A stretch of 63,638 bases of DNA, counting the filler, from Piedraia hortae CBS 480.64 (taxonomy: Eukaryota), in NCBI GenBank assembly GCA_010093745.1. It is 5 parts of 5 records of this genome, joined end to end, with 100 filler letters (N's around TTAATTAATTAA, not from the genome) between each part and the next. Parts side by side here need not be neighbours in the genome. Positions count along the whole stretch, not along the records: positions 1 to 20,909 come from MU006063.1; positions 21,010 to 39,913 come from MU006065.1; 3 more parts are not named here. One strand, 5' to 3'. The notes beneath the pieces were generated by a model. It was not told where the DNA came from. It made no database searches and worked only from the letters and a program-made list of their open reading frames with translations. The position numbers and the translations under genes were made by a program. Below are positions 14,475-63,638 of the stretch, piece after piece (position 1 is the first letter of the stretch; every line of letters starts with the position of its first letter).

Positions 14475-15170
14475 CAGTGCCCCAAGAAATTATTCCAGAT
14501 CTTAGGGTTATTGACACATCAAAACCATTGCCTGCGCTTTATCAACTGTATAAATCTGAGAGTAGTACCATTTGATGGCGCTTCGAATGCGCTATCGAAC
14601 GAGAGTAGATTCGTCTATGTATGTGGTATATAGCGCGAGAAAGTTGATGTTGAAGTGATGCAATTTCGTGGGACAATTTATTAGCGACGCGCCAAAACAT
14701 CAACATCAGCCAAGCAACAAGTCATATTCAGTACGCAACACCTCGACACACGTAAAGAGTGAACACAACGAATTCCAGAGTCTGCAGATTCCACTCACAA
14801 TCGAGATTTTCAGATCTGATCAACATGCGACCGTTGGGACCGTCTAAGCGTGAGAACATCATCGCTGGCATGAAATCGGGCAAACCGGTCCGTAAAATCG
14901 CGAAAGACTCCGGATGTAACAAGGGTAACGTCGAAAGAGTCCACAAGGAGCTGAAGGATAAGGGTGCAAACGTTGTAGATAGCAATGCGGGCCGTCCAGC
15001 CAAGTGTTGTGAATATGCGGTATATTACGCGCATTATTAGTAACCGGCGCTCGGCTCTCGACTTCACGCGTCAACTAGTTTTCCGTAGAGATTTGTATGC
15101 AGGTACACATCTGCTCACAATTATAATACCAAGCTTGATAAAGTTACCAAACGGCGTGCCACGCGTATAG
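14475..15170 (+). mobile_element. Tc1/mariner remnant: left end and N-terminal DNA-binding part of transposase, interrupted by a solo LTR
   Basis: TA|CAGTGCCCCAAGAAATTATTC terminus; ORF MRPLGPSKRENII...RKIAKDSGCNKGNV...GRPAK continues as LDKVTKR when the LTR and one TSD are removed. No DDE domain or right TIR seen. Confidence 0.7.
15005..15128 (+). mobile_element. Complete solo LTR, family A (124 bp)
   Basis: TGTTGTG...TTATAATA flanked by perfect 5-bp TSD CCAAG (15000-15004 and 15129-15133). Confidence 0.97.
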
Positions 15171-15299
15171 ATCTCCCATCAGCACACGAGTAACTGGTCT
15201 TGCTGCAATTGCTTGTTCAACAAAGCAAGTGTTACGTCGTGGCAAGATGTGGCTTCGGCGGCAGCACTCAGATCCGAAAAGTACTCTCGGGCACTTGAG

Positions 15300-16986
15300 A
15301 GAACTGAGAATGGCATCAAGCCACCGATCTCCTCACTATAACACTTGCAAGGATTTGATCCGCACCAGGATATCCCATTTGAAATATTGCATGGTGTGCC
15401 ACTGGGGTTTGTCAGAAGCCTCTGGCACCAGTCCTTGGATGACCCGACGATTTAAGTCGGACTTTGAGGAGTTGGCTCTCTGCGTAGCCTCCTCAAGCCG
15501 GGATGAGATGAACAGTTTTATGGGCGCGCAACATATGCTGCTTTGGAGCAAGTCCTTTGTGGGCTCGGATTTTCGGGCCTTGATCGAGATCTGGCCGGCA
15601 ACCTTGGTCTCACACGTCAATGTATCGAAGATCCACTTGCTCACTTGGCGCCATTGAGAGCAGATGCTACACCCATATTGCGTGCTATGGCAGAACATGG
15701 AGTTGTATTGGGAGGATACCAGGCTACAGCATACTTCTACCCTATTGTGAAGATTACATCGGCTCCTTGGGACTTCTTCTGTAACAGCAACGAGTGCGAT
15801 CCAGATAGTTTCATTACTACAATGAGGCAAATCACGATGCTGGAGATAGTGGAAGACGTCCGTTCTGATGAAGGCAAGAGAGTAGTGTATTTGCGAGGAC
15901 ATATAAATGGATCGACCAACCCTATCGCAGTGAGAATCTATGTCTCTTCTATTGATCCCATGGCTGCAATTATGGACCTGAAGATGGGATGGGTCCGGTC
16001 CGTAGGCTCCTGATGCTGTGGTGTGTCGCAGCCCATCTTGCCAGAATGATATATTCTAGGCAGATTGAAGACATGGACCGGTGGGAAGCACTGTTCAAGC
16101 ATCGTTACGAACGTATGCTTCAGCTATAAACCGACGTCTGGGGCCTGGACAGCATCGGAAAAAAAAACAGAGCTTCATATGCTTGCCCATGTGCCTGAAA
16201 TGGTGCGCAGATTTGGCCCACTGCAAGGAACATCCTCGGAGATCCCAGAGTCGCTCAATCGGCACCTGCGGGGTTACGTACGGTACTCAAACCATCAAGC
16301 AAATTCCTTTGATGCCGCTGGTCATGCGTCAATTGGAGCGGCTAAAATTTATCTTGCCAACCGGGGTTGGTGGTGTCATGATGGCACACATATGACACAG
16401 GCTGGGGAAAAGTGCATCGAGGCTCTCAACCAGCCGCGGATGCGACGGCTGCTGGGCCTTCCCGTTGACCCGGCTGCACCGATCCACACGATGAGCATAC
16501 AATTGCCACCAGGGGATTTGCCAGCTCATGATGGGCTTTTTACGAAGTTTGGCTTGGCTGGTCCCAATACTCGTACAAGGCATTTACCCGCTTGCATGCA
16601 CCTGTCAAGTGCAGTGTTTGATCGTTTGTGAAATGTGGTGGTCAGACTATTTTCCGGCTCAGATTTCTCTTGAGACAGCTGGGCATAGCCAATCGCGTCG
16701 CCCTTCTTGAGGAATTTTATACAACCACATTGGAAGACCAGCGTGGCACCTTTAGGTTACCTTGTTGGCCTCTTGTGAGCGATTCACAATAATGCCCGTG
16801 GGCTCAATCTACAATGTCCCAAACGTGCAACACTTCTGCACTGTGGATTGCCGAAATGTTTGGGTGCCTGACGCAACCAGAAGAGAACGGGAAAGCGTTG
16901 AAGGGTTTGCCTGGAGGCACTCCACAGACGGCGTGCATGGCAATCGCTGGATCGAAAACATCCACATGCGAACGCATGATAATTGA
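15300..16986 (+). pseudogene. Degraded CACTA/Plavaka-related transposase
   Basis: Motifs in shifting frames: GFDPHQDIPFEILHGVPLGFV, SFVGSDFR, ELHMLAHVPEMVRRFGP...SEIPESLN...SNHQA, NVQHFC...RRERE; stops and frameshifts present. Confidence 0.65.
15623..15986 (+). other. Unrelated gene fragment inserted into the transposase
   Basis: Encodes LRAMAEHGVVLGGYQATAYFYP...SAPWDFFC; bounded by ATG on both sides; removal rejoins the transposase in frame. Confidence 0.55.
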
Positions 16987-17178
16987 TCCTGCTGGGCTGT
17001 TTGAGATTAATATGTGCAAGAGATTTGTAAGGGGGTTTAGTATTATCTGATTCTTCCGGTGGAGAATGTACTTTTGGCAAAACGGCCGTGTTCTCTTATG
17101 ATATTTATCTGTATGTGCTTGACTTGCCAATAGCCTTGATATGTTCGCGATATTTCCGAGATTAGTTGCCCAATCGCC

Positions 17179-17226
17179 GCATGATGCTGCGTCACGCAAC
17201 CTACCCCGTGTGACGCAGCATCATGC
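17179..17226. repeat. Perfect 17-bp inverted repeat with 14-nt loop
   Basis: GCATGATGCTGCGTCAC (17179-17195) and GTGACGCAGCATCATGC (17210-17226). Confidence 0.9.
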
Positions 17227-17965
17227 CGGGGAGTTGGCTGTGTACATCACCTCTTCCAAGACACACAGAAATGCTGGACCCGCGTTTCAGCTTCAGTTAT
17301 ACCGGCGACATGCTCTGGTCTGGGATCGCAGAGGTGGCCCCGAAAGGAGCATGCCGCAAGAGCTAACTCGGCGGGCATTCCGGCAGAAGAGCAATTTGAT
17401 ATTTATGCTGCTCATGACGAAATGTCGGCCCTCATCTCGGGCGTGCTGTCGGAGAAAGGAAGTTCCTTCCATGGACGGCACAAGGCTTTTCCCCCAGTGC
17501 CCAGAGAAACTGAAGCGTTGACGTGGTGCAAGACGGTGAGGCAACATAAATTTCTACGACGATAGCCAGGGACGTCCTTGCAGTACAAGCGACAAGCATG
17601 TCCTCAGAGAGAGTTTTTTTTCGCTAAGGCAGCCATAGCTTCGCCTTCCGTCAGGCAGATTGGTAGTTGCTGGAACCGAAGAGATGGGGCGTTGTTTATC
17701 GTTGGTGGGCATGGAGGAAAAGGGCTAGGATGTCGGCTGTGCTAGACAAGCTGGAGAGGAAAATGGGGGCAAGCCAATTGTCAGGACGACCGTAGAGCCT
17801 GAGCCCTTGTGGTCAGAAACTAAAGATTTCAAGTCGACAGCTAAGGCTGGCTGAACCCCTGTGGCCTGAAGCCAATCTGGCAACCACCTGGAAGGAGAAG
17901 GAGACGAAGGTAAAGATCATGCCGTTTTTGGACGGTATTAGCGATTCTAATTCGATTCTATCAAG

Positions 17966-18053
17966 CGGCGCTCGGCTCTCGACTTGACGCGTCAACCAGT
18001 TTTTCGTAGAGACTTGTATGCATACTGGCACACATCTCCTCACAATTATAACA
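17966..18053 (+). mobile_element. 5'-truncated LTR of divergent family-A variant (ends ...ATAACA)
   Basis: Aligns to LTR A and carries the same 4-nt longer GCATACTGG segment as 25752-25879. Confidence 0.9.
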
Positions 18054-18427
18054 AATGGCCTTTGGGGACTTTGTATCGTTAAGCTGACCGTCCCAGTGCT
18101 TCCCTTCAAAATTTCAGCGGAAATACATCACCATAGATCCCTCCAAATTCTTGCGCAGATGCCGGTCATGGGAAATGCACATGGAATCCCGGCGCGCCCA
18201 ACACCACCACAGAGCGTGGAGTCATCCACAGCACGACGCGGCCGAGGACTGGCATCTGCCTATAAAGGAACGAAACAAGGCCCTTTCCTCATGTGGTCTG
18301 GCGGCGATGACCATATCGTGAATTGCATTGGTTCTCCAGAAAAAGCTACAAATTCAGGGGCACGGACCGACTGTATCGCTCAGTTAAGTAATTGGGAACG
18401 TTGGAAATTTGAACAAATCCATTTTTT

Positions 18428-20419
18428 CTAAAAGGGAACTTTGTCCGTAAAATATAAAACAGTATAATCAGTCTCTATGTTGGGAACAACCATCGTTAGT
18501 CCGCACAAGAACCAACCAAATGTTTCCAGCTGATCAGGGCGTTTGAACATCTTCCTACCATTGACAGTGATCCAATTATTTGTTTCATATGTTGTATGAT
18601 CCAAGGCCCAGATTTGTCGGCCGTGGAACATCGAAGTTGACTCTGTTGAGGCGGAAGAGTCCTCCTGCGCTTGGGGCTGCGCAGATTCGTTGGCTGCTAA
18701 CCTGTCCACGACAGGCAGGAACGCTGACGACACAAAGCGTCCATCGATAAGTATAGAACCACCCTAAGGGCCCCGATGGAGTGTGCGCACAATGCTCGCC
18801 TTTTCAATGTCCCATTCACATATGCTTTTGAAGTTATAAGTGTAGAGCATCCTACCGTCTGTTGAGAAACATGGCTTCTCCATTCGGTCTTCAGATCTCA
18901 GTACTAGCGGGGTTTGTGACTTCGGTCCCCAGATCCTTATTGTGTTATCGAATGATGCCGATGCAAAGTTCTGCCCATCCGGAGAAAATGCTATCGCAGT
19001 GATCAATTTCGTATGACCGGTGAATTTTTCTCGCAGAACTCCCCGTTCCAGATCAAAAGCCCATATCTGACCGTCGTACGAACCGCAAAGGAGTGTTTTG
19101 CTGTCTGGGGATAACGCAAGAGCAGTAACATAGACCGGTCTGTCTTTTAACTCTCTCAAAGCATTTGCTTCCATGTCCCAAATCAACACCACATTTTTCG
19201 GGGGCCAGCTTAAGGAGGCAACAACCACGAAACGACTGTCCGATGAGATCAACATCTCTTTATATCTCCTCTGCCAATGATGTAAGAGCCTGTCATCTGT
19301 TAACCGCCGTTCGCAAATTCGCGTTTCAATGTTCCAAAGGCTGAGCTGGTTTCTCGGACTCCATAAGGCGAGTGATCGTCCATCCGTTGACAGTGCCGCC
19401 TTAGCGGGACCAGTTCGATGCTGCGGGCTCTTCAAGGCCAGATCGACGTCCAGTTGTGTAATTCGTCCATCCCAATGCCCCGCCCAGATTGTTTTTCCGT
19501 CGGGCGATAATGTCATGGCTGTGATGTTGACTCCCAATCGCAGTTTCATCGGCTCTTGTTGCGTTTGAAAATCGTAGAGATAAAGACCACGCCAGTCCCC
19601 AAACAAGACTCTCTGGCTGTCTGGCGTGACCATGAGATGAAATTTGCCATAACGTTCGTATCCTCGCATGATTTGCTCAACTTTGTGGGTAGTGCAGTGA
19701 AACACCGATAACGAGTCAGAGCGAAAGACAACGAACTTGCCGTTTGGCGAAATGGCGATTTCCCAGATGGTACTACCTACTTGGCATAGTTTTTCAGGCC
19801 CAGCTTGTGGGCTCCATTTCCAGATGTCTGTGGATCCCGACACCAGCGTCTCACTATCCGACGAGAACGCCATGCACCACACTGAAGAGCTGTGACCCTC
19901 AAACACCTGCCCGGCGTCCTCTTCAGCGTCCTTGTCGGCGTCCCAGATGTAAATCTCGCCGTTGAGCAAGCCCCAAGCGGCATATCGGCCGTTTGGAGAG
20001 ACGGAAACCCTTCTTGCAACGCTGGGCAGTTTGAGATCAATCCGTCTGGCGTCGTCTTCCAAATTCCACCTCAAATACACTCCCGACTCCACAGCAATGA
20101 CCACAACGTCTTCTTCAGGGAACACTGAAGCGGCGTCCCAAAGATAATATCTTGACGACACTTTGACCTCACTTATTACAATTTCCGTACGTTTTTCTTC
20201 GGTGCCGCTTTCAACATCCCATAGTCGCACTGTCTTGTCCCTGCCAACGGTGACAAGTCGTCTCCCGTCGATTGAAGGCGTTATCGACAGTATCCAATCA
20301 GCATGCCCCCTCAGGGTTTGCAACTCAAAGCCCCAATCAGTCGCGACTGGCGGCCAAACTTGCAAGAGATCTTCCACTTCATGCCAGAAGGTGTTTCGTA
20401 CGATACTGTTGCTCGGCGC
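18428..20419 (-). pseudogene. WD40 C-terminal half of a NACHT-WD40 NLR gene, broken by copia insertion
   Basis: APSNSIVRNTF...LQTLRGH, multiple GH-WD repeats; in-frame TAG at 18764; paralogous to 34883-36850. Confidence 0.88.
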
Positions 20420-20909
20420 TATTATAATTGTGAGCAGATGTGTACCTGCATACAAATCTCTGCGGAAAACTAGTTGACGCGTGAAGTCGAGAGCCGAGCG
20501 CCGGTTACTAATAATGCGCGTAATATACCGCATATTTACAACACTCCCCCTTGCTGATTCGATTCAGCACTCCACGGTGCGCGGTTTCGATCAAAAGATA
20601 GGGATAGACGACCGTGCTTTGGTCAGGGAGTCTGCTTTCTGTTCTTTCGTTGGAATGTACTTGACATCCACATTCTTCTTCTCATACTGCCTGCGACAAA
20701 AGTGGTTTCGCAAATCAACGTGCTTGGATCTTCGATGATTGTCATGGTTTTTGGTCAGCGCGATGGCTGACTGATTGTCAACAAAAATCGAGATGCCATT
20801 CGATGATTGATTGATGTTGCTGCTGTGTAAGTGTAAGCGAATCGCCATAGACAGATTGCTCATCGAACGAGACATGAGGCGTAATGATGATGACGGGTCG
20901 ATAGGCGTT
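20420..20909 (-). mobile_element. 3' end of Ty1/copia element: integrase tail, RNase H tail, PPT and 3' LTR (20420-20543)
   Basis: VDNQSAIAL...HRRSKHVDLRNHF...YIPTKEQKADSLTK; PPT AAGGGGGAG abuts LTR; runs into gap. Confidence 0.95.
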
Positions 20910-21009
20910 NNNNNNNNNNNNNNNNNNNNNNNNNNNNNNNNNNNNNNNNNNNNTTAATTAATTAANNNNNNNNNNNNNNNNNNNNNNNNNNNNNNNNNNN
21001 NNNNNNNNN
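20910..21009. other. Artificial contig spacer
   Basis: 100 nt of N containing TTAATTAATTAA. Confidence 0.99.
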
Positions 21010-22103
21010 ATTCATCCTCACAGACGCGAACAGCAGGTTCCGATGGGTGATCACAGGTGCCACCAAAGGAGAAGCGGCAACGGGCCTGAAGGACTTCATA
21101 ATCCAAATGCAGCATCAGTACAGCAAAACTCTGAAGCTCATCTTCACGGACGGAGGAACCGAATTCCAAAACAAAACAGTCCATGACATTGCTCGAGCGG
21201 CCGGCATCAGGATAGATGTTTCGGCACCCTATACACCTGAACAGAATGGGACTGCCGAATCATCCAACAAGGTAATCATTAGACGAGCTCGAACGATGCT
21301 CATAGACGCCAAGATGCCGCCAGAGTTGTGGCCATTAGCCGTGCACTATTCATGCTACGTAACCAATCACATCTTCAACATCAAAACAGAAGCCATACCA
21401 GCACAAACGTTCATGAAAGGCTTGGACCAACCCACTGACGACCCATTAGATTTGAGCCACCTCAAAAGGTTTGGCTGCAAAGCCTATCCATTGATCCAAC
21501 CGAGTGTCCAATCTAAATGGGTTCCACGAGCAGAGGTCGGCTGGTTCGTAGGGTTTCAACCGAATACGATGACAAACTACAAAATTCTTGTTTGGAGATG
21601 GAATAACAAATTCAACGCCTATCGACCCGTCATCATCATTACGCCTCATGTCTCGTTCGATGAGCAATCTGTCTATGGCGATTCGCTTACACTTACACAG
21701 CAGCAACATCAATCAATCATCGAATGGCATCTCGATTTTTGTTGACAATCAGTCAGCCATCGCGCTGACCAAAAACCATGACAATCATCGAAGATCCAAG
21801 CACGTTGATTTGCGAAACCACTTTTGTCGCAGGCAGTATGAGAAGAAGAAAGTGGATGTCAAGTACATTCCAACGAAAGAACAGAAAGCAGACTCCCTGA
21901 CCAAAGCACGGTCGTCTATCCCTATCTTTTGATCGAAACCGCGCACCGTGGAGTGCTGAATCGAATAAGCAAGGGGGAGGGTTGTGAATATGCGGTATAT
22001 TACGCGCATTATTAGTAACCGTCGCTCGGCTCTCGACTTCACGCGTCAACTAGTTTTCCGTAGAGATTTGTATGCAGGTACACATCTGCTCACAATTATA
22101 ATA
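21010..22103 (+). mobile_element. Ty1/copia element lacking RT: integrase core, RNase H tail, PPT and 3' LTR (21980-22103)
   Basis: TDGGTEF, SAPYTPEQNGTAE, LWPLAV, LKRFGCKAY, FVGF, VSFDE, then VDNQSAIAL about 75 nt later; PPT at 21971-21979; first LTR base is G rather than T. Confidence 0.95.
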
Positions 22104-22152
22104 CTATGCAAGTGCCCCGCATACGCGCTAGCGGCGATGCCTGAATCCAACA
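22104..22152 (-). mobile_element. Terminal 49 bp of LTR-like repeat family B, interrupted by the copia insertion
   Basis: CTATGCAAGTGCCCCGCATACGCGCTAGCGGCGATGC...CAACA matches 30549-30597 and stops at the same CAACA boundary. Confidence 0.9.
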
Positions 22153-24299
22153 AAAAGCGCACAACTCTTCACAAAAGGTTCATCGCTAGCGCACCTGTTA
22201 AAGTATAGCGCCGAACTTCAGCCAATACGGGACCTTCTTCGGCACCATGCGTATACTAGATTAGTGGGAAAGTGGCGTCTCCGCCTGATTGGTCGGAGTA
22301 CAGAACCATATTCATTTAGGCACGCTAGCGATAAAGAGTTAGTAGGGCAATATCATCATCCGCATAATGTCATATCTTCTCCGCAAGAATATTATATCTT
22401 GAACATTTAACGAATCATATCTCGAACATATCAAATACCATACCTTGATGATAGTGTCGGTTAGGTCTTCATGGAGCTCTCTATCATAAAATCTAGGGTC
22501 TTCATTGTCAGAAGGATGTGGCACCTACCATGACCACAATTGTAGATAGGAGTCAAAATTTCTCAGGGTTTTTACCTCTATAGAGGAAGTTTTCCATGAG
22601 ACGGGTCATTGTCTCGTTCATGCTTAATGGCATGGTTCGCTGACGTTGTCCTGACGAATGCGGCTAGACTGGGGTAGTGTGGGAAAGGTATCGAACCTCA
22701 CCGCATATAGGTATAGAGATCTACATTCACATTTCCCAGTAAAAGTTGAGTGAAAAACATTTGTCGTCGATATCCGCTCCCCTTAGTCCTCGGAGGTTCA
22801 CCCCTCCGACATCATTATATCGTTTGCAGCTCCAAGAATCTGCTGCAGTGACCATTGCTTCGTTTGTGTCTATGTTCGAACTGCTCCCCTCCAACAACCC
22901 GCTCCCTAAGTGGTCCGTTTTGTGCGACCACCCAAAAACTACCACATACGTCTGTAGGATACTTTTTCTTGATATATAAGATCACATAGCTCATTGTGAT
23001 GGCTAAAACTACATCTATTCATTCGTCAACGAACCGTACGTATCGTGCGTATTGTAGAATATGGAATAGGACTCAAGCTAATCGTTGTCGACTTTCCATC
23101 GCTGTGAGACTAAGAACAGTTCTTCAAACCGATTATAAGGTACATGCCCTCATGGCACTTGCCTCTGCCGACCCCCCTTGACTGCACGTGGTCGTTCTGC
23201 GTTGATGTTCTACTGGGCTGCATTCGGGGATCAAGGAACTTAGGTCCGTACAGCTTGAGACCGTTGAAGGGGTAATGCAAGACAGTGACCCTCCTTCGTC
23301 CTCAGAGTCTCCTGCTGGGCAAGTTTCCTTTACAAACTCCCCCTCTTCAAACTCACTTCCTCGAGTGCCCTCCTCTTCAGAGTTTTGCCCCTCTTCAGAG
23401 TCAGTTGCAGAAATTGCTCCCCCTTGCGACTTTTCAAAGTTCGAAATAACTGGCTTCCGAGCAACTTCTTCTCCTTATCATGCAACTCTCGGTTGTGTTT
23501 TAGCCTTCAGTGAACATATGAAGCTTATGAGCCTTGTGCGACGTTTGAGGTTCCCTCACGGCTCTGGATTCTGCCTTGCTGGTACCGCTGGTAACGTTGC
23601 TTTGTTCCTCTCCTCTACAGGGACGAGACATCTCTTCCGGTCATGCGTCATCTTGCCGCAGGACTCATAGCAAAACACCATCACACACCTAGGGGATCAC
23701 TGCAATCGCGAGCATTCCCAGATATGATGGCGAAGTATACGAAAATGAATGTGCCCGTGAGCACACATTTCATTTCCTCTGGCTCGAATTCTTCGGCGGA
23801 CGATATGTCATTGTCAGCTCCGTTGATTTCTCGACGGCTCATATCTATCTTCCTATGAAACATCTCAATCTTCCATGGGCGCCCATTGCTTTACACCAGA
23901 TAAACTTCGCAGGGAACGCAGAATTGAATGACATAAATAGGTGTGCTTCGGTTCAAGCCATACTTTGGTGCTTGTACCTGCCCCCTTCGAATACGTCTTT
24001 CCTTTCCCAAACTCTCTCAGCTGAGTGTAACCCATGGCCAGGGTTTGGCGTGCGTATAATATTAAGACATCAGTGGGATCGCTCTCTTGCAAGCCTCATT
24101 AGAACCAAGACACGGCTTTTTCGCAGTTTGGCTAATGAAGCAGCTAAACCTGACCGATGATCGCGCATGCTCGTGCTCTGGCGGCCGCCAGCTGTCCAGA
24201 GAGCGCAGTCATACCTCACTCTCGTAATGTGATTTGGCATTGAGAAGCTTTTTCTTGGCAAAATAAACTTTAACTCGGCCAGTGGAGGGTACCATTGCC

Positions 24300-25751: not shown

Positions 25752-25879
25752 TGTTATAATTGTGAGTAGATGTGTACCAGTATGCATACAAGTCACTACG
25801 GAAAACTAGTTAACGCGTCAAGTCAAGAGCCAAGCACCGATTACTAATAACACGCGTAATATACCGCATATTCACAACA
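25752..25879 (-). mobile_element. Divergent solo LTR of family A (128 bp, TG...CA)
   Basis: Full-length alignment to LTR A; flanks CTCCC and TTCCC (4/5 TSD match). Confidence 0.93.
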
Positions 25880-26190
25880 TTCCCACCGCCCCGCACATGC
25901 GGAATCTTGCCGCCCCCACAAACCCCGGTTGCCTTCCAGAAGGACTACAAATCGGCAGGACAAACACCTGCCCCCGACCAGCTAGGAGTTCGTAGAGGAA
26001 ACCATGGGGTGGAAATAGGAGCAGATGAACGACTGATCAGTCATAGTTAGCCACATGTATCATAGCATCGACTCTGATCGATCCTAACCCTAAAACGAGA
26101 TCGATGACGCGATTGCCCCACGTTAGACCACGAGGCCATCTCGTCACTTGCCCATGACTAACTGTCTGGAAAGAACAAGTAACAGTCAAC

Positions 26191-30351: not shown

Positions 30352-30597
30352 TGTTGATATGACAGTGTGAATAACTATCTCTATGAGGGGACGTCAGAAT
30401 AAATATTCTGTACCTGTGGGCCGGTGACGTCACGTCGTACACTAGCAGGGCGCATTCGCCATGTCACATATGACATGACCGTGAGGGAAAACCTCCGTGT
30501 GGGAAAAAACTAGGGTGCAGCTGGTAGTGTAGGAGGTATGCTGACTTGCTATGCAAGTGCCCCGCATACGCGCTAGCGGCGATGCTTGAATTCAACA
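30352..30597 (-). mobile_element. 246-bp LTR-like repeat, family B
   Basis: TGTTG...CAACA ends; followed (minus strand) by cTGGTATTGACT; inverted copy at 32384-32629. Confidence 0.8.
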
Positions 30598-31097
30598 TCC
30601 CTGACCAGGATTCGGGCACTTGAAGATTTTCTTGTGTAGCTCTAGATACGCGTATATACGGACACACCTGTGAGGTGCCGCTGCTAATTAGAATAAAGCC
30701 GACGATTTTCTTTAGGCTCACGGTCTACCGAACCCAACATCTGGTCCTTGAAATCGGAAGGCTAACTAGCAATTATCCTTCCCAGTCTTCCGGTGATGTC
30801 AATATTGAAGAGTAAGGTCTAAAAATCATATTTTATTGTCCGACTGAGCGTCATTCGTGGGCCGCTGTCTTGACGACGCGTAACACGTCGACATCCCCAA
30901 AGCCAGAGCGCTCCTTGAATCTTCGCGCCTTCTTTTCCAGAAAAACCCGCAAACCCGCAACCCTGATTTCTGTACAGTTATGGTCACTCAGCAACAACAC
31001 GCGTGCGTATCTCAAGCGAAGTTCGCTCCCAATGCTGGTCTCAGCCAGCTTTATGTTCTAAACGCACACCTTCCAAACCATTACACGGCAGCACACG

Positions 31098-31520
31098 ATG
31101 CAAACCATCAGCATCTTAGCCTTGATCAGTGTTCTAAGGATTTCAAAGGCGCCAGTTTGGAATCAGCAGTTCAATGATGCCCTAGCCCGGCTCGAAGACT
31201 TGTTGAATGCGATTCTCCAGCTATGTGATCGTTACAAAGTCATCCCCAACTCTGTCAAGCAGGATGTGGAGTTACCTCTCCGAACCAGAAGGTTCTGTCA
31301 AGGAACTCTCTGTGCAGTTTGGGCTTCATTATGGGCAACTTTTTACCTGGGGCTCGCGGCTGGATGCCTTGCTGAAGATGGCAATGTGCATTTTCCGACG
31401 GTGAGCTACTGGACCGCGGCGGCTGCAGATGAGACGGCCAGGGCAAACAAGGTGTTGGAGGAGTGCGAGAGTGTTTTTACCCGGAAGTGTCTGGAGGGTT
31501 TACAGTTGAATGTGGATTAG
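31098..31520 (+). CDS. Hypothetical ORF (140 aa) between the inverted family-B repeats
   Basis: ATG-initiated ORF only; no motif recognised; may be a gene remnant. Confidence 0.25.
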   Translation: MQTISILALISVLRISKAPVWNQQFNDALARLEDLLNAILQLCDRYKVIPNSVKQDVELPLRTRRFCQGTLCAVWASLWATFYLGLAAGCLAEDGNVHFPTVSYWTAAAADETARANKVLEECESVFTRKCLEGLQLNVD

Positions 31521-32383
31521 GTGGCAGATACAAAGGGTGATGTTTTTTTGTTTCGTGCGGCTGGGTGGAGTCTCTTTTGAGCGTGACTTTGATTTACACT
31601 AAAAATGCGATACCAGGCTAAAGCCATTTTTCAAGCTGTCTACGATAAATTGCCTGCACAAATTGTTTGCCAATGACCCTGCCTGTAATTTGGCATCCAA
31701 TGGCTTCGCTGTGAACACTACAGGTAATGCTGTGGAAGCCGTGTGCCAAGTCTCATCTCTCTAGAATCACCGTTCGTCAGATGGAACGGTTGAAAAATTG
31801 TCTGACATCGGACTTAAATCAATTTATAGTTCGCCTGAAAACGGTTAAAACGATCCACAAATGGTTCAAAAATGGGTTATGAACGGTTCAGCTCATCAAT
31901 TGAAGAACTTCTAACGCCGGCAGCGTCTGACTCGACCAGATGAAATGGTAAAACAGATACCACGCCTTCCGTGTTTGATCCAAGCGCGTTCGCAATGGAC
32001 AGGTATACCGCTTGTCGTGCTCTATTATGGTACTGACATTAGAAATAACGTGAAGCATGATTGTGCGGTCGCCCAGACAATCACTTTTTGCCAAATGGTT
32101 GAAGCTATCCCGCAGACGTGCGAGTCATACCTCTCTCTTAACTCCATCAAATCCATTCAACCGTACAGCCGTAGACTCCTCGAGGCTATAATCAAGTAAC
32201 CATGCAACTCACCTGGAAGATTGGCGAGAGCACATCACGTATCTCTATTCAAAGCTCAAATGCTTACGATTGGAAACCCTCAACAGATCTTAAGACGATT
32301 ACAACACTCAAATCAGTTACTATACATGCGACGTTGTTTGGCCGATTGGGCCATCCGTGAACAACCCCTCGAACCCCAGGATG

Positions 32384-32629
32384 TGTTGGATTCAAGCATC
32401 GCCGCTAGCGCGTATGCGGGGCACTTGCATAGCAAGTCAGCATACCTCCTACACTACCAGCTGCACCCTAGTTTTTTCCCACACGGAGGTTTTCCCTCAC
32501 GGTCATGTCATATGTGACATGGCGAATGCGCCCTGCTAGTGTACGACGTGACGTCACCGGCCCACAGGTACAGAATATTTATTCTGACGTCCCCTCATAG
32601 AGATAGTCATTCACACTGTCATATCAACA
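32384..32629 (+). mobile_element. 246-bp LTR-like repeat, family B
   Basis: TGTTG...CAACA followed by PBS-like cTGGTATTGACT; two mismatches seen versus 30352-30597. Confidence 0.8.
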
Positions 32630-39818: not shown

Positions 39819-39913
39819 TATTATAATTGTGAGCAGATGTGTACCTGCATACAAATCTCTACGGAAAACTAGTTGACGCGTGAAGTCGAGAGCCGAGCGA
39901 CGGTTACTAATAA
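39819..39913 (-). mobile_element. LTR family A, partial (runs into gap)
   Basis: Reverse complement of the last 95 nt of LTR A. Confidence 0.95.
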
Positions 39914-40013
39914 NNNNNNNNNNNNNNNNNNNNNNNNNNNNNNNNNNNNNNNNNNNNTTAATTAATTAANNNNNNNNNNNNNNNNNNNNNNNNNNNNNNN
40001 NNNNNNNNNNNNN
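39914..40013. other. Artificial contig spacer
   Basis: 100 nt of N containing TTAATTAATTAA. Confidence 0.99.
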
Positions 40014-40072
40014 GTCAACTAGTTTTCCGTAGAGATTTGTATGCAGGTACACATCTGCTCACAATTATAATA
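40014..40072 (+). mobile_element. LTR family A, 3' 59 nt
   Basis: Same sequence and same break point as 1-59. Confidence 0.95.
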
Positions 40073-58151: not shown

Positions 58152-58253
58152 TGTTGTGAATATGCGGTATATTACGCGCATTATTAGTAACCGGCGCTCG
58201 GCTCTCGACTTCACGCGTCAACTAGTTTTCCGTAGAGATTTGTATGCAGGTAC
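58152..58253 (+). mobile_element. LTR family A, 5' 102 nt (runs into gap)
   Basis: Identical to the start of 15005-15128. Confidence 0.95.
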
Positions 58254-58353
58254 NNNNNNNNNNNNNNNNNNNNNNNNNNNNNNNNNNNNNNNNNNNNTTA
58301 ATTAATTAANNNNNNNNNNNNNNNNNNNNNNNNNNNNNNNNNNNNNNNNNNNN
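58254..58353. other. Artificial contig spacer
   Basis: 100 nt of N containing TTAATTAATTAA. Confidence 0.99.
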
Positions 58354-60288
58354 GATTGCCAGCGTGTGGCCACTAACATGACTAACGCGACGGATGTGCC
58401 AGAGAATTCCTCCTGCTTCTGGCGCCGCTCCTCTTCCGGAATATGGTGCCGTTTGAAAGTTTCACAATCTCGACTACACCCTTCATTAACCGCGAGAATG
58501 GCGCCAGTTTAATAATGTCCTTTACCATCAGGCTGAACTGATGGGCGTTGCATCCAATGGGATACATGGCGGGAAAATTGTGGACGACACTTTCGACCGC
58601 ACTCTTCATACTTGAGGCCGTGTCCGTGCAAATAGCGTCAATACGCTCCGGCCCAATCTCTTCGATGTCCTCGATCAACTTTGTGGCCAGATACGCACCG
58701 GTGTGCGAGTTGACCTCTGTTGCCACTGCCTTGTAAAAAAATGACTTTCCGTCTGGAGTGACCAGAACATAGTTGCTGAGGGGCTCGTTTCGTTGGTTGG
58801 TCCAGGAATCCGTTACCAGCGTCAGTCGTTTTCTCTTTTCCCCCTCGAACAGGATGTTGCTGACCCGTAATTTGAGCCTTTCGTACGAGGCATTGAGCAT
58901 GGGGCCAGCAAGCTGCTTACCATTTGGTAGGGAGTATTCAGGATTAAGCGAAGTGATCCAATCGCGGAACTTTGGATTGTCAAACAAGACGCAAGGGAGC
59001 CCCAGCTCGAACATGGTATCCGCTCCCTTTTGGTCTAGTATCAATTTGCGCTCATTGGTGAGCAGCTCAGCGGCGGGCTTAGATGCATCTGCTTCCAACG
59101 GAACGTCGACCGCTTCGCCAAACGCCGTCGTGGCGGTTCTTGTCTTCGATTCAAACTTCTTGGCATACATCCGTTGGAAAAATTGGTGCACGCTTGAATC
59201 AACGTGTTCGCATTCCTTGAATGGGCCATCATTCGCTTTCTGTTGTTGTTTGTTTATGACTGTGAGGAAAACTTGCAGGTCTCCGTGGGGTGTGGCACGT
59301 TTGGGACATCCCAGTAGTTGTACAACAGGCCTCTGTATGTTCGCATGATTGTTAAAGTCAGGAGAATTTGGTGTGAGGTGTGCGTCAAGAGTTGGATGAA
59401 AGCTTAGCTGAGCGAGGGAAATATGGGAAATTATATGGGAAAAGGGGGGCGTTAATACACCCATAATGTTGGGCTCAAGTTCGCGACTATCTATTGTTTG
59501 ATACTATTAACTCTGCTTGATGAAGATCGCCATGTATCTAACGAAAAGTTTGAGTCCTCTTTCTTAAACTTGAGTGGACCAGTGAGCGAAGCCTGGCGTG
59601 GTACATTGGAGTTTGCGCTTCTCGTTTGCGCACCGACGACATGGAGCTTATCAAGCCTCGTAGATGTCCGATCATGGCCATTGTGAGTATCGGTAACCAG
59701 AGAAATCTGTTCCTCTCTCACAAGTTCTGTTTATCGGCACCTGTGGATAAAACGTGGCGCAGTGCCATGTAATTTGCGCTTCAAGCTTTCGGCACGGCAC
59801 CACCAGTCTGAAGGCCATCACGTGTTCGAGAATGGCAATTGTGAGCATCGTTCACCAGAGAAGATACGCTCCTATCTCCAAGGTTTATCGGCAACTGTAG
59901 ATACAGTCGGGCGTAGCACCATGCAGTTTGCGCTTCACGCTTTCAGCACCGCCAATTTCGAGCTCATCACGGCCCGGCAACGTCTGATCATGACTGCCGC
60001 AAGCAAGCCTCAACAGAGGTGAGGTCAGATCCATGCCAGACACTAATCCCAAAAAGGCTTCGCGCCCAGCGCTCCCTTTTGGCACTAGCCAAGTTGGCTA
60101 GTTTAATCCAGCACGTGATCATTTCCAGTGAGAGACCTAAAGTAAATTTACAGGTGGTTAGCAGTAAATTTACGAATAATTTCATGTCTCATCACGTGAG
60201 CTATAAATTTACCGTAAATTGCCGATCCCTACGTAGGCCCTGAATCCTGACAGCGAGCTGTAAATTTACCGCAAATCGCCGATCCCTA
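58354..60288 (-). mobile_element. hAT DNA transposon, 5' half, frameshifted transposase (about 59346 to the gap)
   Basis: LVTDSWTN, ICTDTAS, CNAH and, after a frameshift, VATRWQ; degenerate BED finger; terminus TAGGGATCGGC on the minus strand. Confidence 0.9.
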
Positions 60289-60916: not shown

Positions 60917-61016
60917 NNNNNNNNNNNNNNNNNNNNNNNNNNNNNNNNNNNNNNNNNNNNTTAATTAATTAANNNNNNNNNNNNNNNNNNNNNNNNNNNN
61001 NNNNNNNNNNNNNNNN
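60917..61016. other. Artificial contig spacer
   Basis: 100 nt of N containing TTAATTAATTAA. Confidence 0.99.
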
Positions 61017-61080
61017 CGTGAAGTCGAGAGCCGAGCGACGGTTACTAATAATGCGCGTAATATACCGCATATTCACAACA
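61017..61080 (-). mobile_element. LTR family A, 5' 64 nt
   Basis: Reverse complement of the LTR A start, ending ...TTCACAACA. Confidence 0.95.
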
Positions 61081-61792: not shown

Positions 61793-62848
61793 TTACAGTA
61801 GCGGGTTTTGTTTATATTCCGGCGCGTTATCGTCGCCTTTTTTAGCTTCCGTTGTTCCTGGCACGTCGACGTCTTCTTGCTCCGCGAGCCACTTTTCTGC
61901 TTCGAGGGCTGCCATGCAGCCTGACCCTGCCGAGGTTACGGCCTGGCGGTACTTCTTGTCCTGCACGTCGCCGGCTGCGAAGACGCCGGGGATGTTGGTT
62001 TCTGTGGTTCCAGGGGTGGTGATGAGGTAGCCGTCTTCGTCCATATTTAGCTGGCCTTTGAAGAGATGCGTCGCTGGTTCGTGGCCTACTGCGTAGAATA
62101 ATCCGTTGGCTTCGACTTCCTCCATCTGTCCTGTTTTGTTGTCTTTGATCATTAGGCTGGTCATGAGGCCTCGGGGGCCGTCGCCGCCTTTGATTTCTAC
62201 GGGAGAGGTGTTGTACTTGATCTCTACTTTTGGGTTGTTGGAGAGCCGTCTGATGTTGGCTTTGCTGGCGCGCATAACGTCCCTTCGCACCAGGACCGTG
62301 ACTTTGGATGCCTTCTTCGTAAGATATGTAGCTTCTTCAACCGCGCTGTCGCCGCCTCCAACAACCACAAGCGGCTTCTCTCTGAATATCGGCAGAGACC
62401 CATCGCACACGGCGCATGCCGACACACCTTTGCCCCAGTACTGGTCCTCACCCGGCAGCTCCAATCTCCGCGCCTTCGCACCCGTCGCAATGATGATGCT
62501 ATCAGCCGTATGCACCTCCTCTTCGAGCTCCACCTCCTCGCCCATCTCATGCAGCCAGTACCTAAACGGCCTCTGGGAGAGATCGACCTTCCCCACCGTC
62601 TGAGAAACAATCTCGGTCCCGCACGCCTTGGACTGCGCACGCATCTGATCCATCAATTCTCCCCCCTTAATCATCATAAACCCCGGGAAATTTTCCACCT
62701 CGTCCGTCGTCGTGAGCTGTCCACCCGCCGCGATCCCCAGCGCCAGGAAACCCTCATACATGACCGGCTTCAAATCCGCCCTCGCAGCGTAAATCGCCGC
62801 CGTATGGCCGGCTGGCCCAGACCCAATAATCACGACTTTGCTATGCAT
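61793..62848 (-). CDS. TRR1: Thioredoxin reductase
   Basis: MHSKVVIIGSGPAG, GGQLTTT, CAVC, GGGDSA, AAGDVQD; intronless. Confidence 0.97.
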   Translation of the reverse strand: MHSKVVIIGSGPAGHTAAIYAARADLKPVMYEGFLALGIAAGGQLTTTDEVENFPGFMMIKGGELMDQMRAQSKACGTEIVSQTVGKVDLSQRPFRYWLHEMGEEVELEEEVHTADSIIIATGAKARRLELPGEDQYWGKGVSACAVCDGSLPIFREKPLVVVGGGDSAVEEATYLTKKASKVTVLVRRDVMRASKANIRRLSNNPKVEIKYNTSPVEIKGGDGPRGLMTSLMIKDNKTGQMEEVEANGLFYAVGHEPATHLFKGQLNMDEDGYLITTPGTTETNIPGVFAAGDVQDKKYRQAVTSAGSGCMAALEAEKWLAEQEDVDVPGTTEAKKGDDNAPEYKQNPLL

Positions 62849-63036
62849 CTTGCGCGCAATCCTACCCTCGCTCGACGGCCGCGAAAACGAAGCTGCAGCA
62901 ACGGGCACAATTCCAAGTCGAAGTGAAGAAAGGCGAGCGCCTCGGAAAGCTGCTTGAGAAAACACTTTGACGATTGTTGCTGTTTTTCTAATCTGTTGGG
63001 ACGCCACATGTGAAAGGGAAGCAATGACGTCATCTA

Positions 63037-63555
63037 CTACATTTCGCCGCACTGGGCGATCAGGACGGGGAGCGAGGGCGCATCGTCCTTGTTTGTTCGC
63101 GTCCCTTCGATTTTTTTTACGACGTCCATTCCCGATACGACTTTACCGAACACGACGTGTTTTCCGTCGAGGAAGGGGGTGGGCTGGCAGGTGATGAAGA
63201 ATTGGCAGCCGTTGGTATGCCGGCCGGAGTTGGCCATCGAGAGGAGGCCCGGCGTGTCGTGTTTTTTGGTAAAGTTTTCGTCGGGGAAATACTTTGTGCC
63301 GTAGATGCTGATGGAGCCGGTGCCGTTGCCGTTGAGGAAGTCCCCGCCTTGGATCATGAAGTCTTTGATGACGCGGTGGATGCGCGCGCCTTTGTAGCCT
63401 TGCGGCTGCCCGCGGCTGTCTTTGGACTCGCCCGTGCAGAATTGGCGGAAGTTTTCGGCGGTGCGTGGGGTTGTGTCGTGGAAGAGTTCCATTTTGATTC
63501 GGCCTAGTGGCTCGCCGCCCAGGGTGACGTCGAAGAAGACGATGGGGTTGGGCAT
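63037..63555 (-). CDS. PPIH: Peptidyl-prolyl isomerase H (U4/U6 snRNP cyclophilin)
   Basis: [55 protein letters not shown]; intronless. Confidence 0.9.
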
Positions 63556-63557
63556 TG

Positions 63558-63638
63558 TGTTGTGAATATGCGGTATATTACGCGCATTATTAGTAACCGT
63601 CGCTCGGCTCTCGACTTCACGCGTCAACTAGTTTTCCG
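63558..63638 (+). mobile_element. LTR family A, 5' 81 nt (runs off window)
   Basis: TGTTGTGAATATGCGG... begins 2 nt from the cyclophilin ATG. Confidence 0.95.

Follow-up and report, generated by a model that had tools for sequence, protein, structure and literature searches.

In assembly records of Piedraia hortae, two truncated Ty1/copia copies share an integrase–RNase H junction that most likely marks a rare deletion derivative of an abundant family

In the window that we analysed, the whole 63,638-nt stretch of DNA from Piedraia hortae CBS 480.64, two copia-type fragments face one another, and in both of them an integrase (IN) coding region runs straight into the end of RNase H (RH), with no reverse transcriptase (RT) between the two. 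An earlier note took these fragments to be copies of an element that had kept its integrase, lost RT and gone on transposing. The locus therefore raises the question of whether this junction exists in the DNA of the organism and, if so, whether it was spread by retrotransposition. The coordinates of the features that bear on the question are collected in Table 1.

Table 1. Positions of the features of copies A and B, the solo LTR and the artificial linkers in the window.
Feature	Position	Strand	Basis
Copy B, IN fragment: last part of the rve core (motifs TDGGTEF, EQNGTAES) followed by the SH3-like domain	21011-21703	+	ORF, Pfam, protein alignment
Copy B, deletion junction: 5-nt microhomology CAACA, common to the IN side and the RH side of the intact element	21704-21708	+	Contig comparison
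Copy B, RH C-terminal tail (…NINQSSNGISIFVDNQSAIAL…ADSLTKARSSIPIF), out of frame with IN and closed by a stop codon	21709-21932	+	ORF, protein alignment
Copy B, polypurine tract (PPT) core, AAGGGGGAG, immediately 5' of the LTR	21971-21979	+	
Copy B, 3' LTR, 124 nt; adjoins terminal inverted repeat (TIR) of another repeat family at 22104	21980-22103	+	
Copy A, 3' LTR, 124 nt; adjoins WD40-repeat ORF at 20419	20420-20543	-	
Copy A, PPT, short 3' UTR and RH C-terminal coding tail (VDNQSAIAL...ADSLTK, with KKNV)	20544-20814	-	
Copy A, CAACA microhomology at the junction, equivalent to 21704-21708	20815-20819	-	Coordinates mapped from alignment
Copy A, final 90 nt of the IN SH3-like region, up to the record end	20820-20909	-	
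Solo LTR of the same family, 5-bp target-site duplication (TSD) CCAAG (15000-15004, 15129-15133)	15005-15128	+	
Artificial linkers, N44 + TTAATTAATTAA + N44, non-genomic	20910-21009, 39914-40013, 58254-58353, 60917-61016		

The whole window is made up of five assembly records placed end to end and joined by four identical spacers. Since the four linkers are identical, the stretch has to be read as glued records, and features that face each other across a linker are not genomic neighbours. The linker at 20910-21009 was overlooked in the earlier reading, and what were described there as copies are the ends of separate records: the minus-strand fragment (20420-20909, copy A) is the end of record 1 and the plus-strand fragment (21010-22103, copy B) is the start of record 2. 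Both are cut by the record ends, with their 5' halves, 5' LTRs and TSDs lying outside, and no 5' LTR, PBS, gag, protease or TSD is present within the records for either copy. When the record ends in the window that stop at an LTR start were compared with copy A (GGCGC side) and copy B (CTATG side), none fitted as a partner with a matching TSD. The lesson is that N44-TTAATTAATTAA-N44 marks a record boundary, and that copies facing across it are record ends broken by a repeat, without local structure.

The boundaries of the copia LTR are fixed because the solo LTR is flanked by the CCAAG duplication. The LTR starts with TGTTG and ends with ...ATAATA in young copies and ...ATAACA in two diverged ones, and a 37-nt word taken from it matched seven times in the window against none expected (100 shuffles). 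There are 11 LTR matches in all, comprising six at record ends or window edges, the two in copies A and B, one intact solo LTR and two that have diverged, at 86%. This family is the main breaker of the assembly. Within its 124-nt LTR lie six record ends or window edges (1-59, 39819-39913, 40014-40072, 58153-58253, 61017-61079 and 63559-63638), and one LTR position, equivalent to 22045, is the start of two records. The diverged LTRs at 17963-18051 and 25754-25884 are older, with roughly 86% identity, and belong to the same or a sister family. Some other frames in the window were also noted. The short fourth record has a 373-aa open frame at 58382-59503 (-) that, by eye, resembles a fragment of a hAT-type transposase. 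Likewise the frames at 61793-63142 (-) and 63037-63627 (-) look by eye like a thioredoxin reductase and a cyclophilin, respectively, and the start codon of the cyclophilin-like frame lies within about 20 nt of the LTR start at the window edge.

The assignment to Ty1/copia is based on both LTR and protein features. The LTRs have short inverted ends, the 3' LTR is preceded by a PPT and the TSD is 5 bp long, and copy B carries a Ty1/copia integrase core with an SH3-like domain by Pfam; the protein search returned 42 matches, of which the best were copia polyproteins. In this family the order is IN, then RT (RVT_2), then RH, and the rve and SH3 domains precede RVT_2 in P0009, P0007 and P0004. Copies A and B lack this order, and RVT_2 was absent from both by Pfam and by alignment to P0009. 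A TRIM or LARD identity was considered and rejected, the coding capacity between the LTRs being an open 244-aa integrase fragment. Copies A and B are best read as the 3' parts of two young insertions that belong to a single high-copy family of fungal Ty1/copia elements.

The IN frame of copy B (21011-21745, plus strand) is open over 244 aa and its stop codon lies at 21743-21745. VSFDE is encoded at 21650-21664 and VDNQSA at 21741-21758, 76 nt apart and in another frame, so that beyond the junction the IN frame consists of 12 foreign codons followed by the stop, while the RH-tail frame has its own stop at 21930-21932. An open IN frame passing VSFDE, an RH tail in a different frame, a PPT and an LTR had all been described in the earlier note, and each was found in place. 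Its description of the element as having kept integrase was overstated, as only the C-terminal ~60% of IN is within the record, the IN tail is deleted and the frame is shifted. Copy B begins inside the IN core, so that neither the zinc finger nor the first catalytic D falls within the record. As the record start truncates the rve domain, its Pfam match (E 8e-6, profile positions 28-102 of 102) does not reach the gathering score; the SH3_retrovirus match (E 7.6e-13) is above the cut-off.

It can be seen from alignment to P0009, a copia polyprotein of 1508 aa, how much has been removed. The IN fragment of copy B aligns to aa 559-784 (49% identity) and the RH tail to aa 1443-1505 (52% identity), and the RVT_2 domain of P0009 lies between them at 1043-1273. 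Positions 785-1442, about 658 aa, have no counterpart at the copy B junction. The DAD and EAEY motifs of P0009, which we take to be catalytic motifs of RNase H, are upstream of 1443 and hence before the part that aligns to the window. The claim that RT and the first catalytic part of RH are missing is thus borne out: copies A and B lack the C-terminal tail of IN, the whole of RT and the first two catalytic motifs of RH, and the deletion leaves the remaining IN and RH parts out of frame with each other. In the protein database, the element's own proteins were found neither by a broad search (42 matches) nor by a near search (11). The nearest matches are 45-52% identical, and powdery-mildew Ty1/copia polyproteins (P0001-P0016) have the same IN, SH3-like domain and RH tail at this level of identity, but in these relatives, unlike in the window copies, RVT_2 separates IN from the RH tail. 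The exception in identity is P0050, an intact relative that its source assigns to Piedraia hortae, which is 93% identical over 57 aa and runs on into the RT N-terminus.

The second copy shows the same junction. Reverse-complemented, copy A agrees with 21614-22103 at 484 of 490 positions, and the six SNPs that separate it from copy B are at 21851, 21967, 21980, 21986, 22022 and 22061. The two are without differences across 21614-21850, so the SNP closest to the junction, at 21851, is 143 nt away from it. The likeness stops exactly at the LTR end (22103) and the flanks beyond it are unrelated. The earlier note had reported the shared junction with SNPs and a different target site; in our comparison the junction is shared, a few SNPs are private and the flanks differ. 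A segmental duplication with shared flanks, which it had named as an outcome that would count against its reading, was rejected, as the similarity is confined to the element.

The flanks themselves show what each copy adjoins. On the copy A side, a WD40-repeat frame (18764-20419, minus strand; Pfam WD40, E 1.4e-40) is open right up to the LTR. The copy A insertion probably interrupts this WD40-repeat gene, which is possibly of the fungal NACHT-WD40 type; its upstream half is outside the window. On the other side, the LTR of copy B is inserted in another repeat, and the next 49 nt (22104-22152) match part of a TIR at 96-98%. The TIR pair is found at 30441-30597 and 32384-32540, roughly 150 nt each and about 2.1 kb apart, and the element at 30441-32540 looks like a DNA transposon. 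In run X1 (see below) the 49-nt piece past the copy B LTR is as deep as the LTR (about 15,800), and in its other copies there it connects straight to 22506 onward.

Contigs of the public runs X1, X2 and X3 were compared with 21011-22610; X3 gave no match. In X1 the unique flank of copy B is found without differences over 313 nt at a depth of 13. The element itself is present in three pieces: a contig of depth 1790 covers 21011-21641 with 0 differences and continues for 495 nt further upstream, a contig of depth 1387 covers 21612-21708 and then runs into unlike sequence, and a contig of depth 2490 covers 21704-22006 and has unlike sequence before it. X2 has two loose ends at the same breakpoint positions, the IN side fitting to 21708 and the RH side from 21704. 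Because the contigs of both runs fit on the IN side to 21708 and on the RH side from 21704, the breakpoint is the CAACA of 21704-21708. Of the two CAACA words of the intact element, one stands just past the SH3-like domain of IN and the second about 12 codons ahead of VDNQ. The X1 sequence past 21708, read by eye in the IN frame, gives ...TQQQQIDSGWASSP, which matches the intact relative P0050 (...TLTQQQQQTDSGWASSP...); P0050, the nearest named relative, reads ...VSFDEQSVYGDLLTLTQQQQQTDSGWASSP... there and continues into the RT N-terminus. The loose end before 21704, in the RH frame, is plausibly the upstream RNase H helix.

X2 additionally contains a 4951-nt contig in which the RH tail and LTR (21704-22103) are followed by 1708 nt, then by IN (21011-21708) and a further 1871 nt. 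This contig is a full-length element in permuted order, and from its lengths we infer that about 2.1 kb has been deleted from an element that measures about 5 kb when complete. An origin of the junction from spliced RNA was also considered, Drosophila copia being an element in which splicing gives rise to a subgenomic RNA; it was rejected, since the missing segment, read by eye, has no initial GT, and no GT...AG, in any of the six registers across CAACA.

The earlier note had suggested that a helper with the same LTR be sought, and a candidate is present in the full-length form of the X1 and X2 contigs. X1 contains intact sequence on both sides of the breakpoint at depths of 1387-2490, and the X2 contig links the LTR to IN and beyond. 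Summed contig depth, which is not copy number, is about 1400-2500 for the internal part and 15,000-22,000 for the LTR as compared with 13 for the unique flank, which points to a family of very high abundance and to numerous solo LTRs. The junction form is a small minority of it at best. X2, which is labelled as a different organism and comes from a different study, shows 0 differences over 698 nt of IN and two over the 400 nt of RH tail and LTR, and has none of the copy B unique flank. This match under another label could reflect very close relatives, a difference in naming, contamination or recent transfer.

The same contigs were examined for the junction itself. No contig crosses 21704-21708 in X1, where three pieces touch the breakpoint, or in X2, where one record matched, and contigs drop rare variants. 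The X1 bin depths across 21605-21766 (2442.6, 1708.9 and 2490.3) are the exact sums of four listed records, and as records 1-4 of that list explain the bins fully, there is nothing else there. Metagenome scans with two exact words that flank the junction, one of 24 nt in the IN part and one of 27 nt in the RH part, gave 0 loci for each. The search for sequence spanning the junction, which had been proposed as a check in the earlier note, went against it as far as the contigs of X1 and X2 are concerned. However, copy B letters at 21967 and 21980 are also missing from X1 and X2, where all of the depth is on the other letter. Since the contigs evidently drop single-copy variants inside the repeat, the missing bridge is weak evidence against the junction and no disproof of it.

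These observations bear on the possibility that the junction is an assembly artefact, that is, a chimeric read path or a mis-threaded repeat, with the same false path joined to two unique flanks. In both runs each side of the breakpoint runs into the intact element, both copies are placed at the ends of records and this repeat is where the assembly breaks, the record of copy A reaches only 90 nt past the junction and the family is covered more than 100 times above single-copy depth. Moreover, as A and B are identical around the junction, an assembler threading repeats could have reused one path. Against this, k-mer or overlap assemblers do not join on five shared letters, and by this reasoning an overlap too short for a de Bruijn join speaks against a junction made by the assembler. 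For a random chimera, identical reads would have to recur, and the assembler would twice have had to prefer it to a path about 100 times deeper, and the silence of contigs that also omit the genuine-looking variants at 21967 and 21980 is expected even if the junction is real. We regard an artefact as unlikely, though well above negligible, and consider that the junction is probably present in the DNA of the organism beyond the assembly. That both loci truly carry it is a closer call, at slightly better than even odds.

A real deletion might also have reached the second flank by a route other than retrotransposition, either because only one locus carries it and its assembly path was copied there, or by ectopic gene conversion or recombination. 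There are just two truncated copies, neither with a TSD, and the 143 nt between the junction and the nearest private SNP mean that the junction is not tied to one flank; ectopic exchange would be favoured in an abundant family of near-identical members, with 0 differences over 21011-21708. On the other hand each record is continuous from its unique flank across the junction, and the differing flanks exclude a segmental duplication. We consider this route rather improbable, more so than an artefact.

The view that an RT-less element has propagated has in its favour the same junction, in the assembly, at two record ends with different flanks; no contig of X1 or X2, which drop rare variants, bridges this junction, and the transposition after the deletion would be seen from two truncated record ends of an assembly broken by repeats. 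On balance, the copies are most likely rare deletion-derived members of an abundant and young Ty1/copia family, mobilised in trans. We give the whole account, in which two young insertions share a deletion of ~2.1 kb and the derivative was re-inserted via full-length siblings, a probability of about 0.55.

According to this account, a jump between the two CAACA words would have removed about 2.1 kb containing the IN tail, RT and the first RH motifs. The simplest route would be a template switch by reverse transcriptase during minus-strand synthesis, with chromosomal microhomology-mediated repair as an alternative. The shortened RNA would keep the LTR, the PPT and a 5' part that is unseen here, and the proteins of full-length siblings with the same LTR could copy and insert this defective RNA, the result being a minor deletion derivative that is no longer autonomous. 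In retroviruses, reverse transcriptase is known to jump between short repeats, and the CAACA at the breakpoint would also suit a template-switch hot spot at which two identical deletions arose independently, in separate reverse transcriptions of full-length RNA. Five letters recur often in a 5-kb element, however, so that use of the same pair twice would be unlikely, and no other deletion variants were seen; we consider this highly improbable.

The open IN frame might be taken as a sign of selection, and the earlier note had proposed to test gag-PR-IN for purifying selection, but the high-depth contig of the family matches 21011-21641 with 0 differences. Over the whole of 21011-21708 there are likewise 0 differences from the majority contigs of X1 and X2, and the open frame is therefore a mark of recency and not of selection or retained function. 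Purifying selection on IN was rejected as a test for the same reason, there being nothing to measure. In a bolder version of trans-mobilisation, the deleted form would be a specialised sub-family, active at present, with gag, protease and tail-less integrase of its own and with RT and RNase H alone supplied by full-length siblings; this seems to us very unlikely. If it were true, the sub-family would in part be a parasite, or else a modifier of dosage, of a family that is very abundant in this fungus and almost identical in X2, the run with another organism's label.

Several known systems resemble a deletion derivative mobilised in trans. Template-switch deletions between short direct repeats occur in retroviruses, and helper-donor mini-elements of Ty1 mobilise an RT-less donor. 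As in those cases, the deletion here is bounded by a few shared letters and an RT-less donor would depend on a helper; chromosomal microhomology-mediated repair, however, would give the same junction here. BARE-2 of barley is a defective copia-type element that parasitises its autonomous sibling BARE-1; it has no functional GAG and keeps POL, whereas in copies A and B it is RT that is lost, the GAG region being outside the window. BARE-2/BARE-1 is named in two sources (PMC8704663; 10.64898/2026.03.01.708851).

Closer in outline are the TR-GAG elements, such as the ATCOPIA63 member AT5TE33540, which are described as non-autonomous elements that keep part of their coding sequence and are moved in trans, transposition of a copia-type TR-GAG having been shown directly in Arabidopsis ddm1 (PMC8704663). 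Non-autonomous families of sugar beet with partly decayed RT, RH or INT domains are likewise described (10.64898/2026.03.01.708851). The TR-GAG and sugar-beet families resemble copies A and B in being LTR elements that descend from autonomous ones through the loss of POL domains; they remain able to transpose with the proteins of others. Unlike in those families, what remains here is the RH tail together with an IN that lacks its own tail, and what has gone is the IN tail, RT and the N-terminal part of RH; the host is a fungus, and the derivative is rare, one recent deletion away from its parent and no established family.

Copies A and B are therefore an ordinary kind of defective retrotransposon, of a kind already in print, and the general picture is unchanged. 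If the junction is real, one deletion bounded by microhomology would have turned an autonomous LTR retrotransposon into a dependent one, and the derivative would have been caught early, while still letter-identical to its parent, in a fungus, most described cases being from plants.
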